Counted from the first letter of the stretch, positions 6,099 through 31,659 are shown. The stretch is 32,000 nucleotides of DNA from Candidatus Kuenenia stuttgartensis (GCF_900232105.1 NZ_LT934425.1:1560001-1592000); one strand, 5' to 3'. The notes: generated by a model not told the origin, from the letters alone. Translations and numbers: made by a program.

Positions 6099-6110
6099 CC
6101 CCTTTCCTGT

Positions 6111-10698: not shown

Positions 10699-10710
10699 AT
10701 GCAAATAAAA

Positions 10711-11733: not shown

Positions 11734-11792
11734 AATAAGGCATTAAAATATTTGTAAAAACCCTCCTAACATTTTTAAGACGTTCCATTAAC

Positions 11793-11835: not shown

Positions 11836-11849
11836 ATGTATAAAGTTGC

Positions 11850-12578: not shown

Positions 12579-12620
12579 AAGCCTTCGCCTTCCTCCATTT
12601 GAAAATTTACATAAAATTAC

Positions 12621-12666
12621 ACGAGCTAACAAATGTATCAACTTAAGTCAACATTTGTTAGCTCGT
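12621..12666 (-). terminator. Perfect 16-bp-stem hairpin 28 nt after the nxrA stop. Candidate partial terminator or mRNA-stability element.
   Basis: ACGAGCTAACAAATGT (12621-12636) and ACATTTGTTAGCTCGT (12651-12666) are exact reverse complements separated by a 14-nt loop. On the transcribed (minus) strand the hairpin is followed by GTAATTTTATGTAAATTTTC. Confidence 0.45.
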
Positions 12667-12693
12667 TATCACTATCGCTTTATATCTAAAAAA

Positions 12694-16140: not shown

Positions 16141-16185
16141 AATTTCCTACTCCTTTCTAAAAAACATTTAATAGTAATACAAAAG

Positions 16186-17157
16186 TTATATAATGTGATG
16201 AGAAATCGCTTTTCTCGATTTATACATTTCAACACATCGGTCACAAGCTCCATCTTCCGCTGACCAGTTGGGAAAGTCCTGCCTTATATCTTGAACCGTT
16301 TCTATGTCTTCTTCAAGATTTTCGACCCATTTGTATGTCCTAAACTGGCACAAGGGGCAAAGAGCGCCTGGCAAAAGAATTTTTTTCTTCTGTCTTAGAT
16401 TTTCAGGAATTTTGTCATCAGATAATCTCAGAACTTTATTAACATCATCTGCCAATTCCAATATCTTTCCGTGTGTGAGGTTTTCATCATTCCAGAGTAC
16501 ATCAAAAATCGCCTTTTTTTCCTCTTCAGAGAACCCCATATAGAGGGCAGAAAATTCTTCAAATCTGCTTTCCCTACTACCAATAGTCTCTTTGCCATCC
16601 TTCAATATGCGGCTATCTACATAAATATCCCAAAAAGTGCTGTATCGCTCCGTTACAATGCACTGTTCCATAGGATTTCCCCCCAGAAACTCACTTCTAT
16701 AACCAAACGCATCGCTTAACATATCAAGTATGTGCATTATTTCGTGCCGCAAAAATTTCTCCAGAAAAATATGATCACGAAAACGCTCCGCCAAAAGCTT
16801 TACTTTCATCCTTTTTTTTGCATTTTTCCGATTCAAATCACTTACAAGGTCAGACCCTTCATCATGCTTGCTTTTTGCTTTCACTATTACTGCACCAGCC
16901 ATTAAGTCCTCTAACTCTTTAAATTCATCAAGCGCCTTTTCCACCAGCGCAACAAATCCTAGCTTGTGAAAGAAATCCCACTCCACTTTTCTGAACTGTA
17001 TTGGTCGTTCTTCAAGAGAAAAATCCTCGTATATAGGATCAACCCGAAGATGATATTCCTCTGAAAGCTTTGTATCCCCTTGTTCTTCCTTCGCCCTAAT
17101 CGCAGTGAATACAACCTCTTCAATCAAACCGGGGTCAAACTCAAGCTTCATCATCAA
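16186..17157 (-). CDS. Hypothetical cytoplasmic protein with an HExxH metallopeptidase-like motif and a C-terminal 4-Cys zinc ribbon
   Basis: 323 aa with no signal peptide. HEIMH is at residues 138-142 (nt 16732-16746, checked on the DNA) in the context FLRHEIMHILDM. CPLC (267-270) and CDRC (305-308) lie near the C-terminus. The start ATG overlaps the chaperone stop by 4 nt (ATGA at 17154-17157). Confidence 0.7.
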   Translation of the reverse strand: MMMKLEFDPGLIEEVVFTAIRAKEEQGDTKLSEEYHLRVDPIYEDFSLEERPIQFRKVEWDFFHKLGFVALVEKALDEFKELEDLMAGAVIVKAKSKHDEGSDLVSDLNRKNAKKRMKVKLLAERFRDHIFLEKFLRHEIMHILDMLSDAFGYRSEFLGGNPMEQCIVTERYSTFWDIYVDSRILKDGKETIGSRESRFEEFSALYMGFSEEEKKAIFDVLWNDENLTHGKILELADDVNKVLRLSDDKIPENLRQKKKILLPGALCPLCQFRTYKWVENLEEDIETVQDIRQDFPNWSAEDGACDRCVEMYKSRKAISHHII

Positions 17158-17963
17158 TTATCTCCCATCTCGTCAACAGAAGAAGCGCACGATAAACATT
17201 CATCAGGAGCCCCTGCTACAACATCCTGATTTAGATCTGACTCTGTGAATGTTTCGGTCTGAACGCCCAACAAGTCCATTTCTAACTTTATAAACTCCTT
17301 CATTACTTCAGAAATGGCAAAATAAAAACCGTCTATAGATTTTCTCCCGAAAAGAAGGGCAAAAAGAGGTATCCATTTACCTGCATGTTCTTTTAAAAAT
17401 TTTTTCTGAGCATCCAGGCAAATTTCAGCCTCTTCATTTCCATGATTTTCTATTGCATACGCTTGTTTATAAAGAAGAAATTGCAGAAACTCTAATTCCA
17501 CGCTGATATGATCACAGCGTTCTTTTTCTTCTTCAGAAATATCCAGACCAAACGCACGGTAAAACCCTTGTATGTCCGCTAAATCCTGCACCTGCTGAAA
17601 CACATGAGCAGCACCATATTGACCCTCATACAGAGGACAATCCTTCGATATGGTATGCCCAACTATGCGATTATATATCCGTTGTAATTTTTCTATGTCC
17701 GCTGTACTATAGAACTCCTGTACATTTTTTAAAGATTCCAACATCGCCGTCAAACTATCACCTTCCGTGTAACATCCTTTGATCTTATCCACAAGTTCAT
17801 TAAAATCCTCGCCCTCTAAAACGGAAAGTTTTTTTTCTTCAGGAAATAGATAGCATGTTGACAATACCTGATACAAAGCACTTCTCGCCAGCAAATTCCC
17901 GACTTCTGCAACTTGGTCAGTTTCCTGTAGATCACTATTATTCACAACCATAAAATACCTCAA
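17154..17963 (-). CDS. TorD/NarJ/DdhD-like redox-enzyme maturation chaperone for NxrA
   Basis: 269 aa, cytoplasmic and all-helical in appearance. LLARSALYQVLSTCYLFPEE...FYRAFGL...ELEFLQFL is the pattern I associate with TorD-family chaperones. It lies 2 nt after the nxrB stop and has a CLSC motif near its acidic C-terminus. Confidence 0.7.
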   Translation of the reverse strand: MRYFMVVNNSDLQETDQVAEVGNLLARSALYQVLSTCYLFPEEKKLSVLEGEDFNELVDKIKGCYTEGDSLTAMLESLKNVQEFYSTADIEKLQRIYNRIVGHTISKDCPLYEGQYGAAHVFQQVQDLADIQGFYRAFGLDISEEEKERCDHISVELEFLQFLLYKQAYAIENHGNEEAEICLDAQKKFLKEHAGKWIPLFALLFGRKSIDGFYFAISEVMKEFIKLEMDLLGVQTETFTESDLNQDVVAGAPDECLSCASSVDEMGDN

Positions 17964-17965
17964 AA

Positions 17966-19198
17966 TTAAATCGAGTTATAATGCTTATCGGGTCTAATGT
18001 GTATCGGTTCTTCCACCGTAGTTCGTACCACTTCCTTGCCATCTTCGCCAAATCCAATTACCGTGTCATTATACATCGTAAATTTTTTACCGTGGATCTC
18101 CGTCTCAAACACCTTCGGGCCTTCTTCGATCTTATATTCATACACAATTGTCTGAGTCATCCTGAACAATGACATTACCGCTAGCAATTCCCTTGAAGGC
18201 ACCATAAACTTTTCAATTGCCTCATCCACACCTGGCCCAAACATCTGTCTTAAATATGCCCTTGGAGCCCATCTTGGAGGAATATAATAAATGTTAGGTT
18301 CCGTGCCAAACTGTGGATACAGTGGCAGTGCTATCTTTTGATGTCTTATTAACCATGTAATCGGATTTTTCGGGTTGTCGTCAAGGAATCCCTGTAAACG
18401 TATTTGCCCAACACAAGCAGACATACATCTCGTTTCCATCGGACGTCCGTCCGTCAGTGAATCACGACCCTCAATTCTCGGATAACAGGCAATACACTTT
18501 TCACTAACCCTGGTCAAACCCCTATACATCGGCTTCTTATAAGGACACTGCTCCACACACTTCCTGTAGCCACGGCACCGTTTTTGGTCTATCAGCACAA
18601 TCCCATCTTCTTTTCTTTTGTAAATAGCCTTTCTGGGACAGGCCGCCAAACATCCGGGATAAGTACAATGATTACATATCCTCTGAAGGTAAAAAAACCA
18701 GCGGCTATGCTCCGGCAACGTTGAATATTCTCCCGGCTGATTGCTGCTCTTCGCTGTATCTTCTCCAAAATTCGGCGACCGCCACTCCTTGTCTTCCGGA
18801 ATATACCCCACTGCCCACTGGTTAATATTCTTCTTTTTTGCCACCTCGAAAATGGTATCCCCCTCATAGGTGCCATAAGGCGCTCCTGTACCATATTGCG
18901 AGGTCTCTTTGTCTTTATCATCTGTGTACCAAATGTTATCAGGACTATCAATCAACTTGAGCGTCTTAACATCCCATGATTGCGGAAATCCACCGTAAGG
19001 TTTTGTCTCGACGTTATTCCACCACATGAACTCCTGCCCTTTATTAAAAGTCCAGGTACTTTTACATGCCATGGTGCATGTTTGACATGCAATACACCTG
19101 TTAATATTAAACACGGCAGCAAATTGATGTTTCGGCCTGGATTCAAAATAGGGATACTCCATACGTCTCCCTAAATGCCAGTTATGTACAAGTGTCAT
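17966..19198 (-). CDS. nxrB: Nitrite oxidoreductase / nitrate reductase beta subunit (four Fe-S clusters)
   Basis: 410 aa. CIACQTCTMAC, CNHCTYPGCLAACP, CRGYRKCVEQCP and CIACYPR...CMSAC are NarH-type ferredoxin motifs. It has no signal peptide, so export would be by Tat hitch-hiking with NxrA. Confidence 0.9.
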   Translation of the reverse strand: MTLVHNWHLGRRMEYPYFESRPKHQFAAVFNINRCIACQTCTMACKSTWTFNKGQEFMWWNNVETKPYGGFPQSWDVKTLKLIDSPDNIWYTDDKDKETSQYGTGAPYGTYEGDTIFEVAKKKNINQWAVGYIPEDKEWRSPNFGEDTAKSSNQPGEYSTLPEHSRWFFYLQRICNHCTYPGCLAACPRKAIYKRKEDGIVLIDQKRCRGYRKCVEQCPYKKPMYRGLTRVSEKCIACYPRIEGRDSLTDGRPMETRCMSACVGQIRLQGFLDDNPKNPITWLIRHQKIALPLYPQFGTEPNIYYIPPRWAPRAYLRQMFGPGVDEAIEKFMVPSRELLAVMSLFRMTQTIVYEYKIEEGPKVFETEIHGKKFTMYNDTVIGFGEDGKEVVRTTVEEPIHIRPDKHYNSI

Positions 19199-19251
19199 CT
19201 TCTAACTCTCCTTTCGATCAACAACACAAATCTAACATTTTTAAAATTTAT

Positions 19252-20220
19252 TTATTGCCATGCAATTCTTTCCAACGACAGCGGGTGCCATTGTATAGAA
19301 ATGTTTTTTTGCCCGTTTCTATCTTCTCTATCACCATTCCACACTGCCATATTGAAGTAAGTGCTTTCCCCCGGCACAAACTGAACATCCAGAGGATCTC
19401 CCGTATTTAACGACCGGCAAAACACCACAGTCCATTTCTTGTTTTCAAATTTACTGCACCCATCCACGTCCTGATGATCCTGTGACGTTAATGTACCAAA
19501 ACCTTCAGCATTTAAATCTTCAACGGCTCTACCCCGAGGCAAAGAAAGCAAATTATGAGCAGCATACCCACCTGACAATTCAGCAGCACTCTGTATCACT
19601 CCTTTATGATAATTTACACTGTGCGGGTTAGTACTGAAATCATCGTGCATGTTAGGATATCTCGCCGGACATTCCTCTATGCCACCAGTAGCTAGCAAAT
19701 CTGCTTCCCAGTCAGCCTTCCAATGCCACAAATTTACAGGCTTTTGCCTATCGCCCATTCTAGGGCTGAATGGCTCTTCCGGACTTATCGTAATCTTCCC
19801 CAAGGGAAACATTAGTGCAGCCCCATCTCTAAACTCTTGAGTTGCGATAGCCTGTTTATTATCGGTGGCATCGTCCCATATCACCTGGAAATAAATCGTA
19901 ATTCCATCGTGAATAGCCTTTATCTCTGCAGAATTCACCGAGCCCCCTCCGTTGGGAAACGCCTTATCTTGCTTTTGTAATTTAACCTGTACCCCTTCGG
20001 CATTTTTAAACGCACCTTCCAAAGCACCAACGGTGATATGCGCGGGGACATCAATTTGCATATATTTCACGTTCAAAACTTCTTTTGCCGGCGTAAGCTC
20101 TTCTTCCGCCACGCCTTTTACCCCTTCCGCTTCCTCCGCGATACATAGCGCAACGCTCAAAAACAAACATCCCAGGAGGGCTACACTACTACTCCCCAAT
20201 AAGCGATAAAATTTTTTCAT
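19252..20220 (-). CDS. nxrC: NXR gamma subunit, heme-b-binding EbdC/DdhC/ClrC family, Sec signal
   Basis: 322 aa. The signal is MKKFYRLLGSSSVALLGCLFLSVALCIAEEA. There is no CxxCH. The blocks WDDATDN...FRDGAALMFP...PRMGD...VNLWHWKADW...AVWNGDREDRNGQK are shared with the C-terminal half of ORF 25052..26659. A strong SD (GGGAGGAG) precedes the start. Confidence 0.8.
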   Translation of the reverse strand: MKKFYRLLGSSSVALLGCLFLSVALCIAEEAEGVKGVAEEELTPAKEVLNVKYMQIDVPAHITVGALEGAFKNAEGVQVKLQKQDKAFPNGGGSVNSAEIKAIHDGITIYFQVIWDDATDNKQAIATQEFRDGAALMFPLGKITISPEEPFSPRMGDRQKPVNLWHWKADWEADLLATGGIEECPARYPNMHDDFSTNPHSVNYHKGVIQSAAELSGGYAAHNLLSLPRGRAVEDLNAEGFGTLTSQDHQDVDGCSKFENKKWTVVFCRSLNTGDPLDVQFVPGESTYFNMAVWNGDREDRNGQKNISIQWHPLSLERIAWQ

Positions 20221-20606: not shown

Positions 20607-21167
20607 CTACCGACCAGGACCATGGCTGCCTGGCTGATCAAATAGCCAATCCCTGTTTTTTTTATGACAAGCAAAACATGTTTTTTCTATAAGGTCAGCA
20701 AAAGCCTTTAACGTTTCCTCCTGACTCCCCTCCATTGCCATCTTTCTCACATTCAATGCTTTATAGACTATTCCACTTTGGAACAAAGCAAATTCCTCTC
20801 TAAGTTTTGTTATTTTTCCGGCGTCTTTAGGGTCAATACCCGCGCGTTCAAACCATTCGTTCTTTTTAGGATCAAACGGAAAGAAGAACTCACTTATTTT
20901 GTAACTTTGATCTACTACAGCGCCAGCCTCATTTGCCACATATTTCAAATTATTTTCCAGAATACCCGATAACATATTAGTCAGACGTTTTTCAATATCC
21001 TTCATCAACTCCTGCGTTGGCTCAATAACCCCTTCATGTTCAGCAGCTTTTCCGCTTGAACCCATAGCCTTGTGAGTAAACATGCTATTCCCAATACCTA
21101 ACATAATTAATGCCAACACGCCAAAAACAACATATTTCATTTTTATCATACCCATAAAATCCCACAC
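20607..21167 (-). CDS. Small secreted or anchored monoheme cytochrome c with CxxCH near the C-terminus (class-II / four-helix-bundle-like)
   Basis: 186 aa in the track. The hydrophobic N-terminus is MKYVVFGVLALIMLGIGNSMF, and a single CFACH lies 18 residues from the C-terminus (nt 20664-20678). The body looks helical. The track start is a GTG; ATGs at 21155, 21149 and 21140 are alternatives. From memory, this position corresponds to the Kuenenia gene reported as the NXR tubule-forming subunit (unverified). Confidence 0.6.
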   Translation of the reverse strand: MWDFMGMIKMKYVVFGVLALIMLGIGNSMFTHKAMGSSGKAAEHEGVIEPTQELMKDIEKRLTNMLSGILENNLKYVANEAGAVVDQSYKISEFFFPFDPKKNEWFERAGIDPKDAGKITKLREEFALFQSGIVYKALNVRKMAMEGSQEETLKAFADLIEKTCFACHKKNRDWLFDQPGSHGPGR

Positions 21168-21615
21168 CTTTCTTCGTAATTTTCACTAACAGAGAACTTT
21201 GCGCAAAAAAACCTTTCCTTAAACCAAAGCTAGAACTGCGCAAACTTCATTCCCTTTAAAAGATGTTCGCTTGACAACAAATAAAAACAAATTGTTACTC
21301 ATTTAATTACGCCATTATACAACATTACAAAACTACCCTTTTTTATACTGTCAATAAATGGACACCGTATCATAGTATTTCTATTTTGAAATCTATAATT
21401 CAAAAATGCAAACGAATGTCGCTTTCATATTTTGTATTTAGCATTTCGGATTTCGCAATTAAATATTAGGGCGTATTTTAGCCTATCGGCATCTGTATCA
21501 AAAAACGCTAGTAACGCATTGCCTGAACAGAACTAAAAGGAGCAACATGTGAAATGTTTTGTCTATTGTTATGGAAGGAAATCAACTGCGGCTGTACGAG
21601 GCTATGCCAGAAAAA

Positions 21616-22920
21616 TTAGTGCGAATGGGATAAATCTTTTCCCATATATTGAGATTTTACCTCATTCACTATTTCTTCCGTAATTTCCTTATAGCCTTTC
21701 TCATTGGCATATTTCTCTATTCTTTTCCTCACTATACCCCTGATAAAAGAAGGAATACGTTCGGTTTGTTCACGCGCCACATTCGTCCAAATTAAAGGCA
21801 GGCATTCCGTGGAAGAATCTTTTTCCTCATCCTCCCCCAAACCGGCTAAAACAGTTTTCAGTGTACGATCCTTTGCATCGCCAACAGTTTTTTCCGATAC
21901 CTCAACAGAACGTACTGTGGGATCTGCAACTGATGCTATGTTGCCTCCGGTTAACATAATATTGCACGGTGCAAGTCTTAGCAAGTTTTCGGCTGTACTA
22001 CCGATGTCTAAGCCATTTGTATTATGAATCCCTGTTTTTCCTACAACCAGCAGCGAAGGCTGTCCTTTTTTCAAGTACCGCAACACCTGGTCAAATGGTT
22101 TTCCGTCCAATAAGATGGAAGATATTGCTACGCCCTCTTTTTTTGCGATACAACATGCGTTATCAAGATGGCTTTGATAAATCTTAGCAAGTCCTTTATC
22201 TATTATTTCCTCATGAAGAGTTTCTTGTTCCTTAAATCTGAAAATTTTTCCGGCTTCTTCAGAAAGTACTTTTGCTATACTTTCAAATGCCACGCGGTGA
22301 TAATGAGGATCGTATATCGATATCGCATCGATCTTTAAATGAAATGACCTTGAAAAAGAAACTGCCGACTTAATCCCTTCTAACGATTGCATACTACCAT
22401 CGACCGCAACAACAAGACGCTCCCCCAACTCTCTTTTCTTTACCACGAGAACATCTGTTTTTAAGCGCCTTACAACACGTTCGCAAACACTTCCAATAAG
22501 ATTTTCATTGACAGAAGCAAGCCCTAGTGCCCCTATGATTACCAAATCATAACCACCGCGTCTTGCTTCCTTGATTATTTCACAATAATTTTTACCTTCC
22601 AGCAAAATGTCTTCATGTTCAACATTTGCGCTTCTGCATTTCTTCTTGAAGACATCAAGGTACGACTCTGAAATCATCTTCAAACCCTGGTTAATTAGTG
22701 ACGTATGTAATTCGCGCTGTCTTTGCAACTCTTTTTCATCCTGGTACTTTTCCGGCAATCCTTCCTCCATGTCACGAAAGCGCCTCTGGTGCAATGACGC
22801 GTCATAAACATGGCAACCTACCAGAAGTGAGCCGTATTTTAACGAGATCGCAATGCCTATATCGATACAATAATCAGAGTATATTGAATTATCTATCGGT
22901 ATTAATATCTTTTTATACAT
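21616..22920 (-). CDS. Cytoplasmic tandem universal-stress-protein (USP) domains plus a C-terminal PCP_red-like (ChlB/BchB C-terminal) domain
   Basis: 434 aa with no signal peptide. Both USP domains keep the ATP-binding G-x2-G-x9-G-[ST] motif (GALGLASVNENLIGS at 130-144; GKTGIHNTNGLDIGST at 294-309). The tail LIWTNVAREQTERIPSFIRGIVRKRIEKYANEKGYKEITEEIVNEVK resembles the W..A...L..IP.FVRG.VR...E..A.E.G...IT pattern of Pfam PCP_red, recalled from memory. Confidence 0.7.
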   Translation of the reverse strand: MYKKILIPIDNSIYSDYCIDIGIAISLKYGSLLVGCHVYDASLHQRRFRDMEEGLPEKYQDEKELQRQRELHTSLINQGLKMISESYLDVFKKKCRSANVEHEDILLEGKNYCEIIKEARRGGYDLVIIGALGLASVNENLIGSVCERVVRRLKTDVLVVKKRELGERLVVAVDGSMQSLEGIKSAVSFSRSFHLKIDAISIYDPHYHRVAFESIAKVLSEEAGKIFRFKEQETLHEEIIDKGLAKIYQSHLDNACCIAKKEGVAISSILLDGKPFDQVLRYLKKGQPSLLVVGKTGIHNTNGLDIGSTAENLLRLAPCNIMLTGGNIASVADPTVRSVEVSEKTVGDAKDRTLKTVLAGLGEDEEKDSSTECLPLIWTNVAREQTERIPSFIRGIVRKRIEKYANEKGYKEITEEIVNEVKSQYMGKDLSHSH

Positions 22921-22964: not shown

Positions 22965-23531
22965 TTAAACAGATTCGCTTTTCAACTTCTTCCACTCACT
23001 GATTGCGCCGCCAGCCAAAGCCACAGTGATTACCGCAATAAATAACCATCGAAATGCAGTTTTCAAATCAGCGGTCTTTCCTCCCTCAACAACAGATTCT
23101 TTCTCGGCTGCAGCAATTTTTATTGTTTTTTCAACAGAAAGCCCCTTAATAAAACCTGCCAGTTCTTTAATTCTGTTCTCGGTAAAGACATTTCCCCACG
23201 GCGGACAAAGATTGGATTTTCCAATGGAAGCCGTTCCACTGGTAATTGATTTGATTAAATCCGATTCCGGCCTCGTCGCCATGTACGCCGCATCCGTAAA
23301 ATTTCTTGGCTTAGGGTTCAAGTCTATCGTGTAAAAGGTACCCCGACCATCGCCGTTTTTTCCGTGACACGGCGAACAATAATACTCAAATGAAGCTTTT
23401 GCCGAAATCAAAAACTCTGTTTCCCTTGCAGAGGTTATCAATTCCTTCGCAAAACAGACACCGCCCGTCAAAAATAAAACAAACACCGGAATGATAAAAA
23501 CTCTCCCTTTTAAAAACAAAAAATGATTCAT
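22965..23531 (-). CDS. Monoheme cytochrome c with an N-terminal signal and a C-terminal TM anchor
   Basis: 188 aa. One CSPCHGKNGDG motif and a C-terminal hydrophobic helix (WLFIAVITVALAGGAISEW). The start is 2 nt after the upstream stop. Confidence 0.75.
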   Translation of the reverse strand: MNHFLFLKGRVFIIPVFVLFLTGGVCFAKELITSARETEFLISAKASFEYYCSPCHGKNGDGRGTFYTIDLNPKPRNFTDAAYMATRPESDLIKSITSGTASIGKSNLCPPWGNVFTENRIKELAGFIKGLSVEKTIKIAAAEKESVVEGGKTADLKTAFRWLFIAVITVALAGGAISEWKKLKSESV

Positions 23532-23533
23532 TG

Positions 23534-25036
23534 TTAATTTCCCTCTTTTCCCTTGACGTGATCAATCAAGAATCCAACCAACGACTTGATTTCCTGATCA
23601 GATAAAGCATAATTAGGTTCTATTGCCCTCGGATTCACCAATATCGGATTTTTCAAGTGATGAAACATATATGCAGGCTGCAACCGATCGCCAACGGTGC
23701 CCAGATTTGGCCCTACAACACCGCCACCCTTAGTTCCTTCTGCGTGACAGGCATTGCACCCTTTATCGTAAAACAAGTTCTTCCCTGCCTCAACTACCTC
23801 CTGAGATGGCTTTTCATTGTCAAAAATTCCCGAAGGAAGCTTCTTGTTTGTAAGATATTTTTCCATAAATTCAGTAGCAAAAGTGGCATCTTCTCCCGTC
23901 AAGTTAAATTTTGGCATCTGCTGGCTCAGAGGCCGTATAATATCAGGTGCCTTTAAAAATTCATTTTCCCAATCCATTTTCATCTTTGTTCCAGCTTCTG
24001 TAAGATTGGGAGCATAAGTACCCCCTTTTTTCTGAATGGTGTGGCAGGTTAAACATCTAATTTCATACAAAACCTTCTCAAATCCTTCAAGTTTTTCCCT
24101 ATTTCTCTCAACAACCGGCATTAACTCACTCAAGCCTTTTATATCGTGACAAACGAAACAACGCGATCTTTCAACAACCTCTTTTCCTTTTGATATAAGG
24201 GCGCTGTCACCTTTAATTGTACTGTATTCAGCATTAGTCAAAAACTTTGTTTCTTCGATAGTTTTCGGAGTGCCACCATCCTGTCCGTCTTCACCTTCGT
24301 CTTCGTATTCCTCTTCAGGCATAAACTGAGTGTCACGCATAACATACTCAACCAGTCCTCGTATTTCTTCATCTGAAAATCTGAACTGCGCCATCAGTGT
24401 ATCAGGAAAATGCATCTTTGTATTTGCAAGCCAGTCATACAACCAATCCCTGTTAACCTTTGTAACAATACTTCCTAAATCAGGCCCGACGCCAACGTTT
24501 CCACCAAGACCTTTAACCGGATGACAAATGGTACAACGCGCACGACCCCAAACCCCTTTTCCCATCTGAAATATTTGGTCCATTTTATCATATTCTTCGT
24601 CTGTCATATCGTCTTCGCGTTTTAACAAATATTCATCCCATTTAACCTTTGAAAGCCCATCATCTGCAATGCTCCCCAAATAAACAATCACCGCTTTAAT
24701 CTCGTCAAACTCAAGACCCAGGTCAGGCATCTTTGCATTTGATATGACCTCCTTTGGGTTGGCGATCCATCTAGATATCCATTCAATGTTTGCCTTATGC
24801 GTAACATTAGCAAGTATAGGCCCGTTTTTTACTCTTTTATATGGATCCTCAAGTTCAAACGGAAGAATAGACCATCCTTCAGGTATTTGGTATTTTTTAT
24901 CTATTTCCAAAAACATTGGTTCAATACTTCTTTCTTGCGCCAAAGCTATACCAATACCAACAAACAATGCAAAGCACAACAGTATCGCCGACACAATTAA
25001 TCTGTCACAAAATCCTGATATTAATTTTAACTGCAT
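23534..25036 (-). CDS. Membrane-anchored tetraheme cytochrome c
   Basis: 500 aa. The N-terminal TM is LIVSAILLCFALFVGIGIALA. Four CxxCH motifs are present: CTICH, CFVCH, CLTCH and CNACH. An acidic linker reads EEEYEDEGEDGQDGG. Confidence 0.8.
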   Translation of the reverse strand: MQLKLISGFCDRLIVSAILLCFALFVGIGIALAQERSIEPMFLEIDKKYQIPEGWSILPFELEDPYKRVKNGPILANVTHKANIEWISRWIANPKEVISNAKMPDLGLEFDEIKAVIVYLGSIADDGLSKVKWDEYLLKREDDMTDEEYDKMDQIFQMGKGVWGRARCTICHPVKGLGGNVGVGPDLGSIVTKVNRDWLYDWLANTKMHFPDTLMAQFRFSDEEIRGLVEYVMRDTQFMPEEEYEDEGEDGQDGGTPKTIEETKFLTNAEYSTIKGDSALISKGKEVVERSRCFVCHDIKGLSELMPVVERNREKLEGFEKVLYEIRCLTCHTIQKKGGTYAPNLTEAGTKMKMDWENEFLKAPDIIRPLSQQMPKFNLTGEDATFATEFMEKYLTNKKLPSGIFDNEKPSQEVVEAGKNLFYDKGCNACHAEGTKGGGVVGPNLGTVGDRLQPAYMFHHLKNPILVNPRAIEPNYALSDQEIKSLVGFLIDHVKGKEGN

Positions 25037-25051
25037 AAAAGCTCCTTGATA

Positions 25052-26659
25052 TTATTGATCCTCTTCTTCTGACTTAGGCGGAAACCTTCTTAATCGAGCA
25101 AGGAACCAAAGCTCTACACTCGCTCCCATAACAACAGCAACTAATACATAGACAAATACCGTTTTAGGCATTGGTTTTTCAAGTAAGATATAATACCATG
25201 ATGATACCGATTTTTGACTGCCCGCATCACCATTAGAACCATCCCACACTGCAAAGGCAATTGGTATCAGCTTACCTATCTCAAATTGTATATCCTTCTT
25301 CCCGTCCTCTGTCTTTAAAGGCCGTTTAAATACTACCTTCCACCGACCATTATCATGCAATCCTTCCCCCATGACATCCTGATTTTCCGGCGACTGTATA
25401 GAAATTTTCTTAAATCCCTTAGCATTTAGCTCTACGATCTCGCCTGGTTCATTTGCAGGCATTTCTGCTATTGAACCAAAACCTTCTTTCCAACAGGCCT
25501 TCCATTGCCACAGGTTGACCACCCCGCCGGAATCACCCATTCCAAAATAAGGTTTTTTTAGCGATTCGGGTATTTTTACGGGAAATTGCAACGAAACGGC
25601 ATCCCTGAAAATATCCTCCTGCAGGTTTGTACGATCATCCCATTCTACGAGAAAAGCAATCTCTCTATCATTGTATAGCCCCCGAATCATCATAGAATCG
25701 ATCGCAGGCTCCCACAACCGTGGATGTGCAACGATCTGCCCTGCTAATGGAATCTCCAGAGGCGCTGCTAATCCCCAAACTTCATCTGCAGGATGGTCAG
25801 GCAATTCACCTTCTTCCAAAAGCTTTACCTTTACAACAACATCAGAAGCCATTTTCTTTGACAGACTTTCCACATAGTGGGCCAAACTCCACCGTTCCTC
25901 ATCACTAAGCGTTTCTTTATAAGAACCCATCGGAGTCTCGTTAAATCCGGTAGAAATCGTCCGATAAATATCACCAGCCGTGCTCCCCCCTTTATAGTTC
26001 CACGATTGCGTCAAATCCCTCGCACGATAAGGCATGCCCCACTGCGTTTGCAAAGCAACCGTGAGCGGCCCATTACCCCGCCCTTCTTCCCCGTGACAAT
26101 TAAAACATTTCACTTGTTTAAATAGTTCTCGGCCTTTATCAATACTCTCCTGGGTAGCAACTGCGCTTTCGACACTCAACACTGCAGGAGCTGTTTCTTT
26201 CTTAAATTGTTCATTAAACGTCTTTATATAATAAATTACCTGCCATCTTTCCGCTTCGCTGATAGTACTCCAGAACGGCATCGCCGTTCCCTCTATACCG
26301 CTCGTTATGATACGAAAAAGATCTTCATCCGTCGGCACAGAACCAAATGGCGTGGACCTTACCTTAAACTCATTACGGGTAAAGTTCCGCGGTCTGGGAA
26401 ACATAGTTCTGGAAGATGGTCCATCACCGGTACCGGTTATACCGTGACAATACCAGCATCTTTTTTCGTAAACCTTTTTTCCTTCTGCTACCGCATTCTG
26501 GTCTTCCGGTAATTTTTGAGGCGTCTCACGTTTGTACGTTCTGAAAAAGTGAGAGGCTTGCGCCTCAACCATATCCGCTTTGCAAAAAGCCACAATACCA
26601 AAAGCAATCAAGCTAAAATTAATTACTTTACTTTTAAACAGTTTTATCATTGTAGTCAT
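25052..26659 (-). CDS. Fusion protein: diheme cytochrome c, an NxrC/EbdC-like heme-b domain and a C-terminal TM anchor
   Basis: 535 aa with a signal peptide. CWYCHGITGTGDG and CFNCHGEEGRGNG are followed by VEWDDRTN...FRDAVSLQFP...FGMGD...VNLWQWKACW...AVWDGSNGDAGSQK, which is block-for-block similar to NxrC (19252..20220). It ends in the TM helix VFVYVLVAVVMGASVELWFLA. Confidence 0.8.
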   Translation of the reverse strand: MTTMIKLFKSKVINFSLIAFGIVAFCKADMVEAQASHFFRTYKRETPQKLPEDQNAVAEGKKVYEKRCWYCHGITGTGDGPSSRTMFPRPRNFTRNEFKVRSTPFGSVPTDEDLFRIITSGIEGTAMPFWSTISEAERWQVIYYIKTFNEQFKKETAPAVLSVESAVATQESIDKGRELFKQVKCFNCHGEEGRGNGPLTVALQTQWGMPYRARDLTQSWNYKGGSTAGDIYRTISTGFNETPMGSYKETLSDEERWSLAHYVESLSKKMASDVVVKVKLLEEGELPDHPADEVWGLAAPLEIPLAGQIVAHPRLWEPAIDSMMIRGLYNDREIAFLVEWDDRTNLQEDIFRDAVSLQFPVKIPESLKKPYFGMGDSGGVVNLWQWKACWKEGFGSIAEMPANEPGEIVELNAKGFKKISIQSPENQDVMGEGLHDNGRWKVVFKRPLKTEDGKKDIQFEIGKLIPIAFAVWDGSNGDAGSQKSVSSWYYILLEKPMPKTVFVYVLVAVVMGASVELWFLARLRRFPPKSEEEDQ

Positions 26660-26736
26660 TAGCTCTTCATTAAAATTAACATTAATTTCAAATTTTTAAA
26701 TACCGACAAAGCTGGACGCCGCCAGACAAGGTTCTC

Positions 26737-27507
26737 TTATTCTGCTTTTTCTCTTTGCCGCGGCATCACACCTGCCGTATCGTATTCTCCCATGATAATC
26801 TTCCACATTTGCTCATCTTCCAAATCACCTTCCCATGCAGGCATTGCAGAGTCCCACGGTGTGGATTCTGAGGGGAGACCAGGACCTCCCTCCTTAATTC
26901 TCCAGAAAAGATAGTTGTCAACCACCGTTGCAATTGTACCAGGGTCCTGGAAATTAATTGGCCTCAGGCGAAAAGAATTCGCAAACGGCCCGTTGCCGTC
27001 GGCCTTTGAGCCATGGCATGGGCGGCAATACGCCTGAAAAAGCACCTTCCCTTCCTCAACACATCGCCTTTGAGTATCCGCATCTTTTCCTCTAAATGGA
27101 TTTTCAAGCTTCTCATATTTTTGCGGCAGGGTAGGGTGCTGAATTCTTAATTCAACGGGTGAAGCTGCTCCAGGCAGAGAATAAGAATAAACAAACCAAC
27201 CTACAACAAGCGGAAAGGCCATAAGAAATATTTTCTGCAAAAACATCTTAAGGAAGGCCCCTTTACCCGGCAATAAAAACCCTAAAAAATCGGCAAATTT
27301 CTGATTACTTGTCGTAGCGTAAACCAAACCTGCCAAAATCCCCATAATCAAGTACCATGTCATCAGCGTACTTGGAGTCGGCATAGGATGCCCTTTATCC
27401 ATTAATACCTGAAAAACCCACGGAGATACATATTTCAAGAATAAAAATAAAAATACGACTGCCGCAACAACCCAAAACATTAAATACGGACTTCGCTTAT
27501 TCCCCAT
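26737..27507 (-). CDS. Polytopic (about 3 TM) membrane protein with a C-terminal monoheme cytochrome c domain
   Basis: 256 aa. Hydrophobic segments are MFWVVAAVVFLFLFL, WYLIMGILAGLVYA and IFLMAFPLVVGWFVY, followed by CRPCHGSKADGNG. Confidence 0.75.
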   Translation of the reverse strand: MGNKRSPYLMFWVVAAVVFLFLFLKYVSPWVFQVLMDKGHPMPTPSTLMTWYLIMGILAGLVYATTSNQKFADFLGFLLPGKGAFLKMFLQKIFLMAFPLVVGWFVYSYSLPGAASPVELRIQHPTLPQKYEKLENPFRGKDADTQRRCVEEGKVLFQAYCRPCHGSKADGNGPFANSFRLRPINFQDPGTIATVVDNYLFWRIKEGGPGLPSESTPWDSAMPAWEGDLEDEQMWKIIMGEYDTAGVMPRQREKAE

Positions 27508-27557
27508 TAATAAACACTCCTAACGTTAACCATCGCCCTAACCATCTCAACCAAGAC

Positions 27558-28508
27558 CTACTTTAAACTTCTCAAATATTCGATTACTGCATAAAACTGG
27601 CGCACACTTAACAACTCACCTATATTTCCAGGCATAATAGAGACTTCCTGCTTCTTCATATCTTCAATCTCATCTTTCGGAATAACCACCTCTTCCACAG
27701 AACCGCTTTCTTCCAGTATCAACGTAAGTTCTTCTTCAGTATCGCTTTTTATTAGTCCGTTGTAAGGGATACCATCTGCTGTTATTACAAAGACCGTCTC
27801 ATAGCCCTTTACGATAACAGCGCTTGGCTCCAAGATAGACTCAACAAAATACTGTGGAGTCTGAATTGCGCCAATGCCTGTGAGTTCTGGCCCTACTTTT
27901 TGACCCTTGCCGTTTACCATATGACATTTGCCACAAGTAACATCAAGCGATTCATCAAAAAATACCTGTTCCCCCTCTTCCGCGGTAACTGCCAAAGGTG
28001 GAACCCAAGGCTTCACCTTTGTCTTAGAAGCTTCCGGTATTTTATCCTTAAACTTCATAATGGCATCTAAATCCGGCTCCCCCCCCAGGGATTGCAAATA
28101 GGCCAGAACAGCAAGTATTTTCTCACGCGACAACATGATCGGGGGATCATACACCCTCGGCATAATCTTATCGAACCCCTCCACCACGTATTTTTCCGGG
28201 TCAATTATCGATTCTACTAAATACTCTAAACCACTGGACAAACCAAGCTCTTTCGCCCTTTCCTCCGCCCTCTCTGCCAATCCTTCCTGATCAGGCCCTC
28301 TTGTAGCACTGCCGCTGGAACCTATTTTGTGGCATGTACTACACTGCCCGTCGCCCCAGAAAATTTGCTCTCCGGCTTCAGCAGAAACACCGGTTGCTGT
28401 CCCCCCCCCGCCCGTACCAGACAAACCAGTAACATAGACGGTGATATACATGTAAAACCCTATGACAGCAACTCCAAATGCAACAATTTTTAACATCGTC
28501 TTATTCAT
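27558..28508 (-). CDS. Membrane-anchored diheme cytochrome c
   Basis: 316 aa. The N-terminal TM is MLKIVAFGVAVIGFYMYITVYV, followed by a Gly-rich linker. CSTCHKIGSSG and CGKCHMVNGKG are present. Confidence 0.8.
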   Translation of the reverse strand: MNKTMLKIVAFGVAVIGFYMYITVYVTGLSGTGGGGTATGVSAEAGEQIFWGDGQCSTCHKIGSSGSATRGPDQEGLAERAEERAKELGLSSGLEYLVESIIDPEKYVVEGFDKIMPRVYDPPIMLSREKILAVLAYLQSLGGEPDLDAIMKFKDKIPEASKTKVKPWVPPLAVTAEEGEQVFFDESLDVTCGKCHMVNGKGQKVGPELTGIGAIQTPQYFVESILEPSAVIVKGYETVFVITADGIPYNGLIKSDTEEELTLILEESGSVEEVVIPKDEIEDMKKQEVSIMPGNIGELLSVRQFYAVIEYLRSLK

Positions 28509-28633
28509 AAGCCTTCTTTTGCCTTCTTCTTACCACCATGATCTTAAAAATTTATCAACACAATCATTATTCATCATAATGAGTCAATCACTAAGGCTGT
28601 CAAATGATAAATCAATAAACAGTCTATACAACA

Positions 28634-30733
28634 CTATACTTCGGCCTCAGTTTTCACTTTTTTATCTCCCAGGTTTGCCAGCCAAAACACAAATGCCACC
28701 AAGCCAAGGAATAACGCCACAATCAAGCCAACAATCCTTCCCATATAAGCAAGCGTCGGAGTATACGCCCCTTGAGATGTATCCTGCATAAGCCCGTATA
28801 CATGCCAATCCATACGCAAGCCAGAGCGAATAAACCCCATAAGCCCCATCAAAATGACAATTACTATACATAGCATTAGCAATGCATATTGAGACCTTAC
28901 TGGCATTTTACCCCAAACTATGTCACCCACGACTTTTGCTTTACGGAATACCAAAATATCAATAACCGTATTCATAATCAAACAGCTCATCACAATCGAA
29001 ACCTGGGTCACAGATAAATAGCGTAGCACAATATTAGCCTTCTGCATAACCTGAAAACCATAATACCAAAAATAGAGCACGGCAATGCCTGCCGTCACCA
29101 GAAACAACATGGATTGCGCAAGCTTGCCTTTATTCCTGAATGTTAAAAAGGCAGCAAGACAAACAGCAAACGACTGTATATAAAGTGCTGTGACCAATGG
29201 TTTCACATAAATCTTCGTTTGTGCTTCCAGATCGACAAAACTTAACGAAACCGCATAAGAAAGCAGCATCAGCAAACAAAAGCCCAGCGCAGAGAAAATA
29301 CCTATCATGCCCACCTTGCCTTGCTCAGAAAAGCGTACTGTCTCGCCCTTATTACTTCTGCGATATATGAGAAAAGAAAAAAATGTCGACAAAATAATAA
29401 GATTTACCACTGCATTCTTGGCAGCCATGACCCCAAAATATTTTGAGAAAGGATGATACTGCTCGCCAATCATCGCCCTTTCTTCTCCGCTGAGAGGTAG
29501 ATTATGGGGGGTAAGCCATACTGCAAAACACATAAAAATAACAACATTAAGGTATTTAATATACCCCGTGTACCTCTCTGACCCCTTTATCCTTCCCATC
29601 CCAAGCCATAAATAATAGTTAGCGCCTATAAACAACATGCCGATAAGTATCGCCTGGATAATAAATGTCCATGAAAAAGCCCCACCCATCATAATATTGC
29701 CCATCACAGGACTAGCACTATAAACCTCACGTCCCAGCCAATATCCCGCAAAAGGCAATGGAATTAATGCTCCAATACCTATAAAATTCCCAACATAGCC
29801 CATCCAGTCATAATGCGCCCTTTCTTCTTTGGTCTTCGAATTTAAGAATTTAACCGCGGCATAAGCACCGACCACAAAACCGCCAAAACATACATTCGCA
29901 ATCAAACGATGAAGATTGACGGGCATCCACAGCTCATTATAAAATGCTTCGTACAAACTCAGCAGCCTGCCAGTTTTCATACTAACACCTGAAGGACTCA
30001 TCATATATGTCGCCCATGAATTAGTTATAAACATAAGCCCTGTGCCAAAGAGATTAAGCATGATGCCAAGCGCAATGTGGCACCACTTCTTCGTCGAAGT
30101 CCCTTTTAGGACATCCCACGAATAATAGTAACCATACAATGTGAACGCCTCGCCAAAAAACATTAGCGAATAGACATACATTGTTGGAGCAAACACACTG
30201 GTCAAATGGCTCATAAATTCAGGGTATAAACCGAACAAACAAAAGGCCAGCAGCCCCCCTAGCGAGGCTGTTGTTGCAAATGCAGCAGACAACAACTTGG
30301 TAAACTCCTTCGCCATCTTATCATATTTTATATCGCCGCTTTTAAATCCAACGATCTCGACAATAACCGCAAATATTGGCACACCAAGTACAAATGCTGC
30401 GAACATCAGATGCAGCTCAGACACGATCCATACAACCACACGCGAATCCAGTCCAAAGAATGACCGGTATTGAACCGGCTCCAACTCACCCTCTTCTTCG
30501 GCTGGCGCCGCGCCTTCTACCACACCTTCAGCAGTACCCTCCGCAGATTGCGGCGCTCCGGAATCCGTCTCGCCCTCAAACGCAGGCAATTCAACACCGA
30601 TGTCTTCAGCATGCGCAACAGAGAGCAGCGAGATATCCTGCCGGAAAAAAGAAAGAGCCGCACCGAATGCAATAACCAACAAAAGTACAAAAATGCTTTT
30701 TTGCTTTATCGACAATAACTTATAATTATTCAT
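28634..30733 (-). CDS. Cytochrome bd oxidase subunit I (CydA)-like polytopic membrane protein. It is enlarged and has no CydB partner.
   Basis: 699 aa. By-eye alignment to E. coli CydA gives SRVVVWIVSELHLMFAAFVLGVP vs SRLQFALTAMYHFLFVPLTLG (His19 equivalent), FFGEAF vs FFLESTF, KKWCHIALGIMLNLFGTGLMFITNSW vs VQHMCVTWLVALGSNLSALWILVANGW, and PVNLHRLIANVCFGGFVVGAY vs QVKFVHTVASGYVTGAMF (His186 equivalent). An extra N-terminal TM and an acidic Ala/Glu/Gly-rich stretch are present. No cydB-like gene lies next to it. Confidence 0.75.
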   Translation of the reverse strand: MNNYKLLSIKQKSIFVLLLVIAFGAALSFFRQDISLLSVAHAEDIGVELPAFEGETDSGAPQSAEGTAEGVVEGAAPAEEEGELEPVQYRSFFGLDSRVVVWIVSELHLMFAAFVLGVPIFAVIVEIVGFKSGDIKYDKMAKEFTKLLSAAFATTASLGGLLAFCLFGLYPEFMSHLTSVFAPTMYVYSLMFFGEAFTLYGYYYSWDVLKGTSTKKWCHIALGIMLNLFGTGLMFITNSWATYMMSPSGVSMKTGRLLSLYEAFYNELWMPVNLHRLIANVCFGGFVVGAYAAVKFLNSKTKEERAHYDWMGYVGNFIGIGALIPLPFAGYWLGREVYSASPVMGNIMMGGAFSWTFIIQAILIGMLFIGANYYLWLGMGRIKGSERYTGYIKYLNVVIFMCFAVWLTPHNLPLSGEERAMIGEQYHPFSKYFGVMAAKNAVVNLIILSTFFSFLIYRRSNKGETVRFSEQGKVGMIGIFSALGFCLLMLLSYAVSLSFVDLEAQTKIYVKPLVTALYIQSFAVCLAAFLTFRNKGKLAQSMLFLVTAGIAVLYFWYYGFQVMQKANIVLRYLSVTQVSIVMSCLIMNTVIDILVFRKAKVVGDIVWGKMPVRSQYALLMLCIVIVILMGLMGFIRSGLRMDWHVYGLMQDTSQGAYTPTLAYMGRIVGLIVALFLGLVAFVFWLANLGDKKVKTEAEV

Positions 30734-30790
30734 TAATGGTACGCCTTTTCACAAGTAAGTTACACAAACCATAAAAACCCATCATCACAC

Positions 30791-31534
30791 TTATTTTTTC
30801 TGATACACAAAATCTACGACCACTTCCCCACCGGCCGTTACGACAGCCTCACTCTTTCTCTTACCCAGCTTCTCTTGCCATACTGATATCTCATACGTAC
30901 CGGCAGGAACATTGTCTATCCTGAATTTACCATCAGCATCCGTAACCGCAAAGTAAGGATTCCCCTTCACCAAAAGGTACGAACTCATCCACTTATGAAC
31001 ATCACACGTTATTTTCACTATTTCAGGAACATCAAACTTCTTTACCATTTTGCCATTACCGGAAACACCTTCATTAAAAGCAGGGTTTCTAATCGACCAT
31101 GAGTGCAGATTATGCATAATGGGGTCACTGTTCAGCAAATTCACTTCGGTACCCGCACACACCGCAACAACGTGTGGTTCAAATACGCAGCCTTTCTGGT
31201 CCAAGGAAACAGGAGTCGTATCCAATGCCTTTCCAACCTCAATACTGTCCAAAGACACAACCGCATTCTTGATGCCCATATTGCCCGAATTAATCACCAG
31301 ATCTTCTGACGCCTTCAACCCATGACCACATGTCTGCTCATCTTTATCAATCTTCAACATCTTTGCGGCAGGCACACCACCCTCAAGCTTTACCGTACCT
31401 GCAATTGTCCCGCCGTTTTTCACTTCAATCACATTATAAACAGGCGCTTTCCCCTTTGCCATTACCGTTTGATTAACGCTCACCAAACTTAGCACAATAC
31501 CACTTACCAAGATAACAATGTTTAAGCTTTTCAT
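30791..31534 (-). CDS. Secreted cupredoxin-like protein with a CarboxypepD_reg-like C-terminal domain. First gene of the cluster and paralog of 11850..12578.
   Basis: The signal is MKSLNIVILVSGIVLSLVSVNQTVMA. Candidate Cu ligands are MHNLHS and CDVHKWM (C-x2-H-x2-M). The tail is YFAVTDADGKFRIDNVPAGTYEISVW. I prefer the ATG at 31534 because the 5 upstream codons in the track (ATGGAGGGTGGAGTG) read as its Shine-Dalgarno sequence. Confidence 0.6.
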   Translation of the reverse strand: MKSLNIVILVSGIVLSLVSVNQTVMAKGKAPVYNVIEVKNGGTIAGTVKLEGGVPAAKMLKIDKDEQTCGHGLKASEDLVINSGNMGIKNAVVSLDSIEVGKALDTTPVSLDQKGCVFEPHVVAVCAGTEVNLLNSDPIMHNLHSWSIRNPAFNEGVSGNGKMVKKFDVPEIVKITCDVHKWMSSYLLVKGNPYFAVTDADGKFRIDNVPAGTYEISVWQEKLGKRKSEAVVTAGGEVVVDFVYQKK

Positions 31535-31630
31535 CACTCCACCCTCCATACTTCCAAATATCCAAAATTAACAACAGAAACCATCTGTTAAATGCACAAC
31601 AAAATACGAATCATATCAAAACGGTCGGAT

Positions 31631-31659
31631 ATGATACTTTTGCAAAATTAAATTGTCAA
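31631..31659 (-). promoter_or_regulatory. Candidate sigma-70-type promoter for the nxr supercluster
   Basis: On the minus strand: TTGACA (31659-31654), a 17-nt spacer, then TATCAT (31636-31631). This is about 85-100 nt upstream of the first cluster gene. An 8-bp inverted repeat (31610-31617 / 31628-31635) overlaps the -10 region. Confidence 0.35.

Follow-up and report, generated by a model that had tools for sequence, protein, structure and literature searches.

A cupredoxin, bd-like and cytochrome c gene block upstream of nxr in Candidatus Kuenenia stuttgartiensis: a possible high-potential membrane module

We analyse a stretch of 32,000 nucleotides (nt) from Candidatus Kuenenia stuttgartensis (NZ_LT934425.1:1560001-1592000), called the window below, and in particular a block of seven genes that lies upstream of nxr, the genes for nitrite oxidoreductase (NXR). 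Fifteen genes on the minus strand form a single cluster that runs from 31549 down to 11850, and the block occupies 22965-31549 of it. A first-pass annotation, made from the sequence alone, had described seven co-directional genes with gaps of 2-125 nt, encoding a secreted cupredoxin-like protein, an orphan CydA-like membrane protein and five c-type cytochromes with 10 CxxCH motifs, and had read them as a dedicated complex wiring NXR to the quinone pool. The observation is confirmed: all seven genes are on the minus strand, the gaps from kustd1713 to kustd1707 are, in order, 57, 125, 50, 77, 15 and 2 nt, and the ten motifs are divided 2+1+2+4+1 among kustd1711, kustd1710, kustd1709, kustd1708 and kustd1707. 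The interpretation is partly supported and was already published. As discussed below, there is a genuine, conserved module that in the anammox bacteria is tied to NXR, yet it is not specific to NXR.

The identity of the genes follows from two comparisons. In an exact-sequence look-up, all seven proteins of the block are those of Candidatus Kuenenia stuttgartiensis kustd1707-kustd1713 (CAJ72458.1, for example, is kustd1713), and NxrA and kustd1699 likewise match public Kuenenia records exactly; kustd1705 has no exact match at the start codon chosen here. The published table of the nxr cluster, kustd1699-kustd1713, gives the same gene order, lengths and haem counts as the window. It labels kustd1707 a monohaem, kustd1708 a tetrahaem, kustd1709 a dihaem, kustd1710 a monohaem and kustd1711 a dihaem cytochrome, kustd1712 cydA-like, and kustd1713 a conserved hypothetical protein. 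Since the proteins match exactly and the gene order and haem counts agree, the block is the kustd1707-kustd1713 part of the known nxr cluster, a gene set that, as the first-pass annotation rightly said, had already been noted beside nxr. The cluster has been described as conserved throughout the anammox genera.

The membrane protein kustd1712 is recognisably related to subunit I of cytochrome bd. The family Cyt_bd_oxida_I (PF01654) matches residues 97-343 (E 2.8e-22, 79 bits against a cut-off of 26), and the ten highest-ranking PDB structures in a Foldseek search are CydA chains without exception, at probability 1.00; no structure has been solved for a bd-like protein of this type. The phmmer match to CydA of Geobacillus thermodenitrificans (5doq_A, 5e-13) can be aligned over transmembrane (TM) helices 1-5 only. 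His108, Glu195 and His275 of kustd1712 align to G. thermodenitrificans His21, Glu108 and His186, and in 97 homologues His108 is conserved in 97%, His275 in 100% and Glu195 in no less than 97%. One of the two proton-channel glutamates of CydA is thus kept (Glu108), and the other is not: an invariant Tyr188 stands for Glu101 in G. thermodenitrificans numbering. Past TM5, kustd1712 has no alignment to any solved CydA, that is, no recognisable Q-loop, quinol site or methionine ligand of haem b558. A Pfam scan of the open reading frames (ORFs) in the window finds no cydB, so the description of this protein as an orphan CydA relative stands. We considered whether kustd1712 might be a fused CydA-CydB; with 699 residues, ~15 TM helices and CydB matches that are weak (E > 0.04), a fusion is unsupported.

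An AlphaFold2 model of kustd1712 (69 homologues; pLDDT 83.4, pTM 0.84) has, in order, an N-terminal helix resembling a signal, an acidic linker that is disordered, and ~15 TM helices. When sidedness is taken from helix order and the positive-inside rule only, the motif AHYDWMG (306-312), which is the most strongly conserved one in the bd-like family, falls at the predicted cytoplasmic end of TM6, and an invariant His219 falls at the predicted cytoplasmic end of TM4, far from the lumen-side haem ligands. Two further histidines, His427 and His644, lie in lumen-side loops and are conserved in at least 98% of homologues. It is possible that these conserved histidines and motif residues mark extra haem, metal or quinone sites. 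The protein as a whole is 65-88% identical across anammox genera. Judged by the features in the published family definition (Murali, Gennis & Hemp 2021), kustd1712 is of the OR-N type: it has a CydA core, an equivalent of His19, no quinol site, ~14 TM helices, and an operon with cytochrome c donors.

The first gene of the cluster, kustd1713, encodes a copper protein. Pfam leaves its cupredoxin domain undetected, even at E 10, but a family profile of 33 homologues matches type-1 blue copper protein 5fc9_A (7e-7), amicyanin (5e-5) and plastocyanin (2e-3) in the PDB, and the copper ligands His146, Cys182, His185 and Met188 are invariant in the same 33 homologues. This bears out the assignment of a secreted cupredoxin-like protein. 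Two starts are in use in the databases: the longer form has 252 residues, and the second methionine, at 31534, where the first-pass annotation had placed the end of the block, yields a form of 247 residues. The cluster closes with a paralogue, kustd1699, which is soluble and abundant; both proteins have the type-1 copper pattern His...Cys-x2-His-x2-Met in a cupredoxin fold, and both bear the database name 'blue copper protein' ('plastocyanin' is also used for kustd1713).

Among the five cytochromes, kustd1711 is the one for which a structure exists, being identical to PDB entries 7ZS0, 7ZS1, 7ZS2 and 9FBK. Its haems have published potentials near +350 mV, tuned by calcium, and this is the sole measured cofactor potential in the block. 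Its crystallographers reported a signal peptide and expressed it as a soluble, secreted protein. The tetrahaem kustd1708, which has no solved relative in the PDB, has only one membrane-type segment; it is N-terminal, ends in ALA before QE, and looks cleavable. The earlier claim that every cytochrome is anchored by a TM helix therefore holds for kustd1707 and kustd1709 (C-terminal) and for kustd1710 (N-terminal), and goes too far for kustd1708 and kustd1711. The hydrophobic segments of kustd1710 are 9-27, ~48-66 (read from the sequence) and 84-111, and the protein weakly matches 6h5l_B (1e-7).

One cytochrome had been credited with an NxrC-like haem-b domain, and this is kustd1709. Its EB_dh domain (PF09459) has E 2.7e-29 and 103 bits against a cut-off of 33, and PDB matches of the haem-b domain are 7b04_C, 'Nitrite oxidoreductase subunit C' (8e-21), and 2ivf_C (6e-11). 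TIGR03477 scores 119 bits, under its curated cut-off of 170, so that kustd1709 is a divergent relative. The axial ligands of the NxrC haem are, according to the published work, Met155 and Lys305, and both are kept, aligning with Met374 and Lys483 of kustd1709. Across the 80 loci compared below, the Met/Lys pair is found in anammox kustd1709 and in the nxrAB-adjacent copies of two other loci, L012 and L018. Most other kustd1709 homologues of the module show R/M, F/R, L/R, M/M or M/H in the ligand columns, which reflects either a different haem ligation or a shifted alignment; the columns were read from a query-anchored domain alignment, full-length MAFFT alignment of the homologues being too gappy, and are uncertain for distant homologues. 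The dihaem domain of kustd1709 (residues 56-267) is a close paralogue of 6h5l_B (E 3.5e-53). We take 6h5l_B to be Kustc0457, the dihaem partner crystallised with the HAO-like nitrite reductase Kustc0458. Purified soluble NXR, it has been reported, holds kustd1704 and not kustd1709.

Table 1. Features of the nxr cluster and its upstream region; positions are those of the window, and gene numbers in the nxr core are from the published table.
Feature	Position	Strand	Description
Best sigma-70-like promoter match	31631..31659	-	TTGACA-17-TATCAT; 11/12 matches; ~80 nt upstream of first gene
kustd1713	30791..31549	-	Secreted type-1 Cu (cupredoxin) domain + C-terminal CarboxypepD_reg-like beta-sandwich; 252 aa; PF13620 8e-9
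kustd1712	28634..30733	-	Orphan CydA-like polytopic membrane protein, OR-N type; 699 aa; PF01654
kustd1711	27558..28508	-	Dihaem class-I cytochrome c, acidic (net charge -19); CxxCH at residues 56, 192
kustd1710	26737..27507	-	Monohaem cytochrome c on N-terminal bundle of two or three TM helices; CxxCH at 161; PF13442 2.5e-9
kustd1709 ('alternative NxrC')	25052..26659	-	Signal peptide, dihaem c, NxrC/EbdC-like haem-b, C-terminal TM; CxxCH at 68, 185; TM ~497-521
kustd1708	23534..25036	-	Tetrahaem cytochrome c, four class-I/SoxX-like domains; four CxxCH; PF00034 + PF13442, three stretches each
kustd1707	22965..23531	-	Monohaem cytochrome c, signal peptide + C-terminal TM; CxxCH at 52; TM ~156-180
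kustd1706	21616..22920	-	Cytoplasmic tandem-Usp + C-terminal PCP_red; PF00582 9e-36, PF08369 1e-12; 44 nt downstream of block
kustd1705 (NXR-T)	20607..21167	-	Monohaem, tubule-inducing NXR subunit; CxxCH; gaps of 448 and 386 nt on its sides
nxr core	12694..20220	-	Pfam matches
NxrC	19252-20220	-	nxr core
NxrB	17966-19198	-	nxr core
NarJ-like chaperone	17154-17963	-	nxr core
kustd1701	16186-17157	-	nxr core
NxrA	12694-16140	-	nxr core; exact match to Kuenenia protein
kustd1699	11850..12641	-	Second cupredoxin + beta-sandwich protein, closes cluster; 31% identical to kustd1713, same Cu ligands

No ORF of at least 150 residues in the window matches a NarI-type subunit in Pfam, where the family is presumably the one named Nitrate_red_gam; the remark that nxr lacks such a subunit is thus correct for the window. 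The window also contains no NrfD-like (ActC/ActF) or ActB-like gene, so the block is not an alternative complex III (ACIII), and its resemblance to that complex is limited to weak cytochrome-domain matches to ActE (6btm_E, 5.5e-7). Published measurements cover the block and its neighbours. The role of kustd1705 as NXR-T, the tubule-inducing subunit, is known. When nitrite is replaced by nitric oxide (NO), the whole cluster kustd1699-1713 is down-regulated together, the block responding in the same direction as nxr. The transcripts of the block are 13-76 times lower than that of nxrA. By proteomics, the membrane fraction holds 84-99.5% of the products of kustd1705-1712, and both blue copper proteins, kustd1713 and kustd1699, are found chiefly as soluble proteins. 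In abundance the cupredoxins roughly equal the NXR subunits, and the membrane subunits are ~10-fold lower.

The presence of the block in other organisms bears directly on its function. Scanning one genome per GTDB species with the kustd1712 alignment, we find a relative in at least 582 species, and we examined the best 80 of these loci, with at most 10 kb of flank per side, mapping 15 window proteins onto them; 12 loci are anammox and 68 are not. In all 12 anammox loci the genes for the cupredoxin, the bd-like protein, the dihaem cytochrome c and the monohaem cytochrome c occur in the same order, and on longer contigs kustd1709, kustd1708, kustd1707 and kustd1706 are present as well. Wherever a Kuenenia/Brocadia-type locus has enough flank (six of six), nxrC and nxrB follow the block. 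In two Scalinduaceae loci, L009 and L010, the cupredoxin gene is preceded by an additional tetrahaem gene resembling kustd1708, and L009 has no nxrC or nxrB within 2.6 kb after the Usp gene. The block may be less closely tied to nxr in Scalindua than it is in Kuenenia and Brocadia.

Outside the anammox bacteria, a core of five genes is syntenic in the 68 loci: cupredoxin, bd-like protein, dihaem cytochrome c, monohaem cytochrome c with TM helices, and a dihaem cytochrome c with EB_dh domain and TM helix. These loci come from Poribacteria, Latescibacterota, Methylomirabilota/Rokubacteria, Nitrospinota, Nitrospirota, KSB1, Gemmatimonadota, Acidobacteriota, Myxococcota, Chloroflexota, non-anammox Planctomycetota, and Alpha- and Gammaproteobacteria. 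Only three of them have nxrA/B within 10 kb, namely L012 (Poribacteria), L017 (Rokubacteria) and L018 (Nitrospinota); the other 65 carry the core without nxrAB within that distance. Conservation beside nxr, which the first-pass annotation had proposed as a check, is therefore found in the six Kuenenia/Brocadia-type loci and in three other lineages, but it is not the rule elsewhere.

Other neighbours recur instead. We clustered the remaining flanking ORFs and scanned the cluster representatives, which identifies an AioA/IdrA-type molybdoenzyme in 17 loci and its Rieske small subunit in 11; di-haem peroxidases in 15; a Rieske/cytochrome b complex in ~6 (L021, L022, L059, L063, L067, L069); an ActB-like ACIII subunit in 5 (L062, L065, L070, L077, L079); COX1/COX2 in ~8 (L059, L063, L069, L072, L073, L075, L076, L080); and sigma-54 two-component regulators in ~8. 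In Poribacteria, for example, Rieske and cytochrome b genes come first, followed by those for the tetrahaem, monohaem, cupredoxin and bd-like proteins and the rest. A kustd1706-like Usp-PCP_red gene stands beside the module in ~25 non-anammox loci (among others L012, L019, L050, L052, L070, L071). In six loci, a radical-SAM/SPASM protein with the same PCP_red domain adjoins the kustd1706-like gene.

The molybdoenzyme loci have a more specific arrangement. At least one di-haem peroxidase gene is present in 13 of them, usually two directly upstream, and this combination fits the published synteny signature of iodate reductase, idrABP1P2. In ~15 metagenome-assembled genomes of marine or subsurface Proteobacteria, tandem OR-N modules lie directly downstream, on the same strand, of an idr-like set of five genes: two di-haem peroxidases, the Rieske small subunit, the AioA/IdrA-type molybdoenzyme (TIGR02693, 389 bits) and a HEAT-repeat protein (L027-L029, L031-L035, L037-L039, L041, L046, L052; in L029, for instance, the set is at 1155-9899 and the module at 9917-22055). 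The module is duplicated in tandem in these proteobacterial loci; both bd-like paralogues keep every conserved His, Met and Glu examined, and kustd1712 is nearer to the one whose gene comes after that of the cupredoxin (51-54% identity versus 44-46%). Among the papers searched, none joins iodate-reductase with bd-like or OR-N terms, and the cross-phylum synteny, including this idr-like association, is the only part of our analysis that may be new.

The remaining features of the window can be dealt with briefly. The promoter match in Table 1 is a lead only, given that the promoter scan as a whole is at chance (47 found versus 44.8 expected); the terminator scan is likewise at chance level, and operon structure gets no firm support from either. 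Elsewhere in the window, prfB, the gene for release factor 2 (RF2; 8236-9382, plus strand), has the classical programmed +1 frameshift: an ORF of 23 codons stops at CTT TGA (8302-8307), and the RF2 frame runs on in +1 to 9382. A SpoVG homologue (5643-6098, minus strand) has a zinc-ribbon-like insertion at residues 54-80 within the SpoVG domain, as judged from weak Pfam matches to DZR and DUF7577 that are below the gathering score.

The proposal of a membrane complex between NXR and the quinones has a history. It was published by Lucker 2013, citing de Almeida 2011, with the observation that the bd-like protein keeps the haem-b ligands and is without the Q-loop and all quinol-binding residues. 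Mundinger 2019 repeats the membrane-link hypothesis for Nitrospira, crediting Kartal 2013. The complexome experiment that the first-pass annotation suggested is also cited in later papers, which quote the 2016 study (de Almeida 2016) for a 'membrane-bound NXR'. Thus, the quinone link is a re-derivation of a published and still unproven hypothesis. Meanwhile, Murali, Gennis & Hemp 2021 defined bd-like proteins with 14 TM helices and no quinol site as the OR-N family, widespread in Bacteria, and recent genome papers treat OR-N proteins as putative, uncharacterised cytochrome-c-oxidising O2 reductases. It is true, as had been supposed, that the membrane module as a whole has no biochemical or structural assignment; what has been characterised is kustd1711 (structure and potential) and the neighbouring NXR-ABC-T.

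We tentatively favour the reading that the block encodes a membrane-bound complex of high potential on the lumen side, which receives electrons from NXR and acts as an electron hub or a terminal reductase, rather than a nitrite:quinone reductase; we regard this as a substantial possibility that falls short of being probable. To judge by sequence features, the complex would centre on an OR-N-type bd-like subunit without a quinol site. We infer the assembly of its subunits, the route of the electrons and the final reaction as follows. Electrons from nitrite oxidation would exit through the haem b of NxrC. They would be transferred to the module by the abundant soluble cupredoxins kustd1713 and kustd1699 and the acidic, +350 mV kustd1711 or, alternatively, NxrAB would dock directly on the NxrC-like domain of the membrane-anchored kustd1709. 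The class-I c haems of kustd1707-1711 would then pass them to b haems at His108 and His275 of kustd1712, where a high-potential acceptor would be reduced; homology suggests trace O2, and another small oxidant is possible.

Several results are consistent with this scheme. The cofactor types are all of high potential: type-1 copper, class-I c haems (+350 mV in kustd1711) and a Met/Lys haem b. Together with the lack of a known quinol site and the oxidase-like genomic positions, they argue against quinone coupling. These positions, next to bc complexes, ACIII and COX1/COX2, are typical of terminal oxidases, and the fact that the module also adjoins another periplasmic high-potential molybdoenzyme counts against quinone coupling as well. 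Moreover, cupredoxins at roughly the level of NXR, with membrane subunits ~10-fold lower, fit a set of shuttles feeding a minor complex.

There is also evidence that weighs against a hub or terminal reductase of this kind. O2 reduction by OR-N proteins with a cytochrome c donor is hypothesised only, and activity has been measured for no member; the glutamate replaced by Tyr188, Glu101, adjoins the O2-reducing haems; and recent work assigns O2 reduction in Scalindua to a cbb3 oxidase. That a strict anaerobe keeps the block beside nxr, 65-88% conserved across the anammox genera, argues for a core role and not for O2 scavenging. In the model of kustd1712, the face formed by AHYDWMG and His219 could be a quinone or metal site, and the iodate-reductase-like neighbours would fit a quinol-dependent electron donor equally well.

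The last two observations are also what one would cite for the published alternative, according to which the block is the membrane part of NXR: kustd1709 would serve as anchor in place of soluble NxrC, and kustd1712 would exchange electrons with menaquinone, either in nitrite:quinone reverse electron flow driven by the proton-motive force or in quinol:nitrate reduction with NXR running backwards. The hypothesis has been put forward in the literature (Lucker 2013; Kartal 2013, as credited by Mundinger 2019), and later papers refer to the complexome study of 2016 for a 'membrane-bound NXR'. The tight block, its place beside nxr in anammox and three other lineages, its co-regulation with nxr, its recovery in the membrane fraction, the absence of NarI from the nxr core, and the NxrC-type Met/Lys pair of kustd1709, which among the homologues is restricted to anammox and nxrAB-adjacent copies, are all in keeping with a membrane part of NXR; so is the conserved His/Asp/Tyr/Trp motif at the cytoplasmic face of kustd1712, and the position next to iodate reductase would also suit an electron-donating quinol dehydrogenase. 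It is the coupling to quinone that is left unsupported. kustd1712 is without Q-loop or quinol-site residues, and the block has no other quinone-type subunit. Menaquinone has a potential of about -0.07 V. From nitrite/nitrate at the published +0.42 V, each electron would have to move ~0.5 V uphill, which would take several protons for every electron pair, and the block offers no pump-like subunit. In addition, the core occurs without nxrAB nearby in 65 of 68 non-anammox loci, and recent anammox work sends NXR electrons to soluble nitrite reductases instead of quinone. We therefore think it rather unlikely that the module connects NXR to menaquinone.

Two other explanations take the opposite sides of the NXR connection. 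If the module were functionally independent of NXR, a general respiratory complex placed beside nxr by shared ancestry or island transfer, one would expect what we see in most phyla, where the core is widespread without nxr, and also the 448- and 386-nt gaps that set the block off from the nxr core and the block's low transcript levels relative to nxrA. One would not expect the adjacency to be kept in every Kuenenia/Brocadia-type locus with enough flank and to recur in Poribacteria, Rokubacteria and Nitrospinota, nor the block to shift in the same direction as nxr upon nitrite withdrawal, nor kustd1709 to keep the NxrC-type ligands, and we consider independence improbable. Conversely, kustd1709 might tether NXR to an HAO-like nitrite reductase, its NxrC-like domain binding NxrAB and its dihaem domain docking Kustc0458, so that nitrite would be disproportionated to nitrate and NO by enzymes joined at the anammoxosome membrane, with the bd-like subunit mainly as scaffold or side branch. 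The match of residues 56-267 to 6h5l_B points this way, as do published indications that NXR electrons go to nitrite reduction and that HAOr localises near the anammoxosome membrane. However, the architecture of dihaem domain, haem-b domain and TM helix is found in many phyla without HAO or the anammox pathway, so that the dihaem domain is an ancestral part of the module rather than something acquired for anammox; HAOr already has its own dihaem subunit, reported as equimolar. The argument also depends on 6h5l_B indeed being Kustc0457. We consider the tether about as improbable as independence. A role for the block as a membrane-bound nitrite reductase was rejected, as more than 98% of NO-forming activity is soluble according to published work.

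A broader formulation is conceivable, in which the module is a respiratory complex not characterised before that acts as general membrane partner of periplasmic high-potential molybdoenzymes, these being NXR in anammox, Nitrospinota, Poribacteria and Rokubacteria, and iodate-reductase-like IdrAB in marine Proteobacteria. In anammox it would not depend on O2; kustd1709 would link NxrAB with the membrane and perhaps also with an HAO-type nitrite reductase, and a non-canonical quinone site at the cytoplasmic AHYDWMG of kustd1712 would make it energy-coupled. We regard this formulation as improbable. The way in which electrons leave the lumen-facing or periplasmic NXR matters for the anammox bacteria, Nitrospira and Nitrospina, since between them these make or consume most nitrate on Earth. 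The OR-N bd-like complex is the leading candidate for the link, and in Nitrospira it is also a candidate terminal oxidase. The window itself contributes no further object here. The comparison does narrow the matter down: the core stands on its own in many phyla, beside several kinds of electron-transfer neighbours, and what it does is therefore to be looked for in a general high-potential reaction rather than in a quinone link specific to NXR.

Finally, we compare the block with known systems. With the nxr cluster kustd1699-kustd1713 of K. stuttgartiensis (Strous 2006; de Almeida 2011, 2016; Kartal 2013; Chicano 2021) it is the same locus, without difference. The Nitrospira/Nitrospina cluster 'bd-like_3 + alt_NxrC_2 + two cytochromes c' (Lucker 2010, 2013; Mundinger 2019) has the same core: besides the bd-like protein and the dihaem and monohaem cytochromes c, it includes an alternative NxrC that bears two c haems and a TM helix. 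Its transcription is high, the same hypothesis of an anchor and reverse electron flow has been published for it, and our scan recovers the Nitrospirota/Nitrospinota loci at 53-58% identity. In Nitrospira, however, the module is tandem-duplicated and not beside nxrAB, whereas in anammox it is present in single copy, directly upstream of nxr, with the extra tetrahaem kustd1708 and monohaem kustd1707. The OR-N family shares with kustd1712 the CydA-like first helices, the His19-equivalent, the lack of a quinol site, the ~14 TM helices, and operons with alternative donors; none of its members is characterised in biochemical or structural terms. Canonical CydAB has the same subunit I fold, the ligands His21/His186 (E. 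coli His19/His186) and one channel glutamate in common with kustd1712, which differs in having no CydB and no Q-loop or quinol site, a tyrosine in place of Glu101, ~six extra TM helices, and c-type cytochromes and a cupredoxin as partners. NarGHI offers the general idea of a molybdenum-bis(pyranopterin guanine dinucleotide) enzyme wired to the membrane via a haem-b subunit; in contrast to it, the window encodes no NarI homologue, NXR faces the lumen, and what might serve as the anchor is a haem-b domain of EbdC/NxrC type that has one TM helix, rather than a dihaem quinol dehydrogenase.

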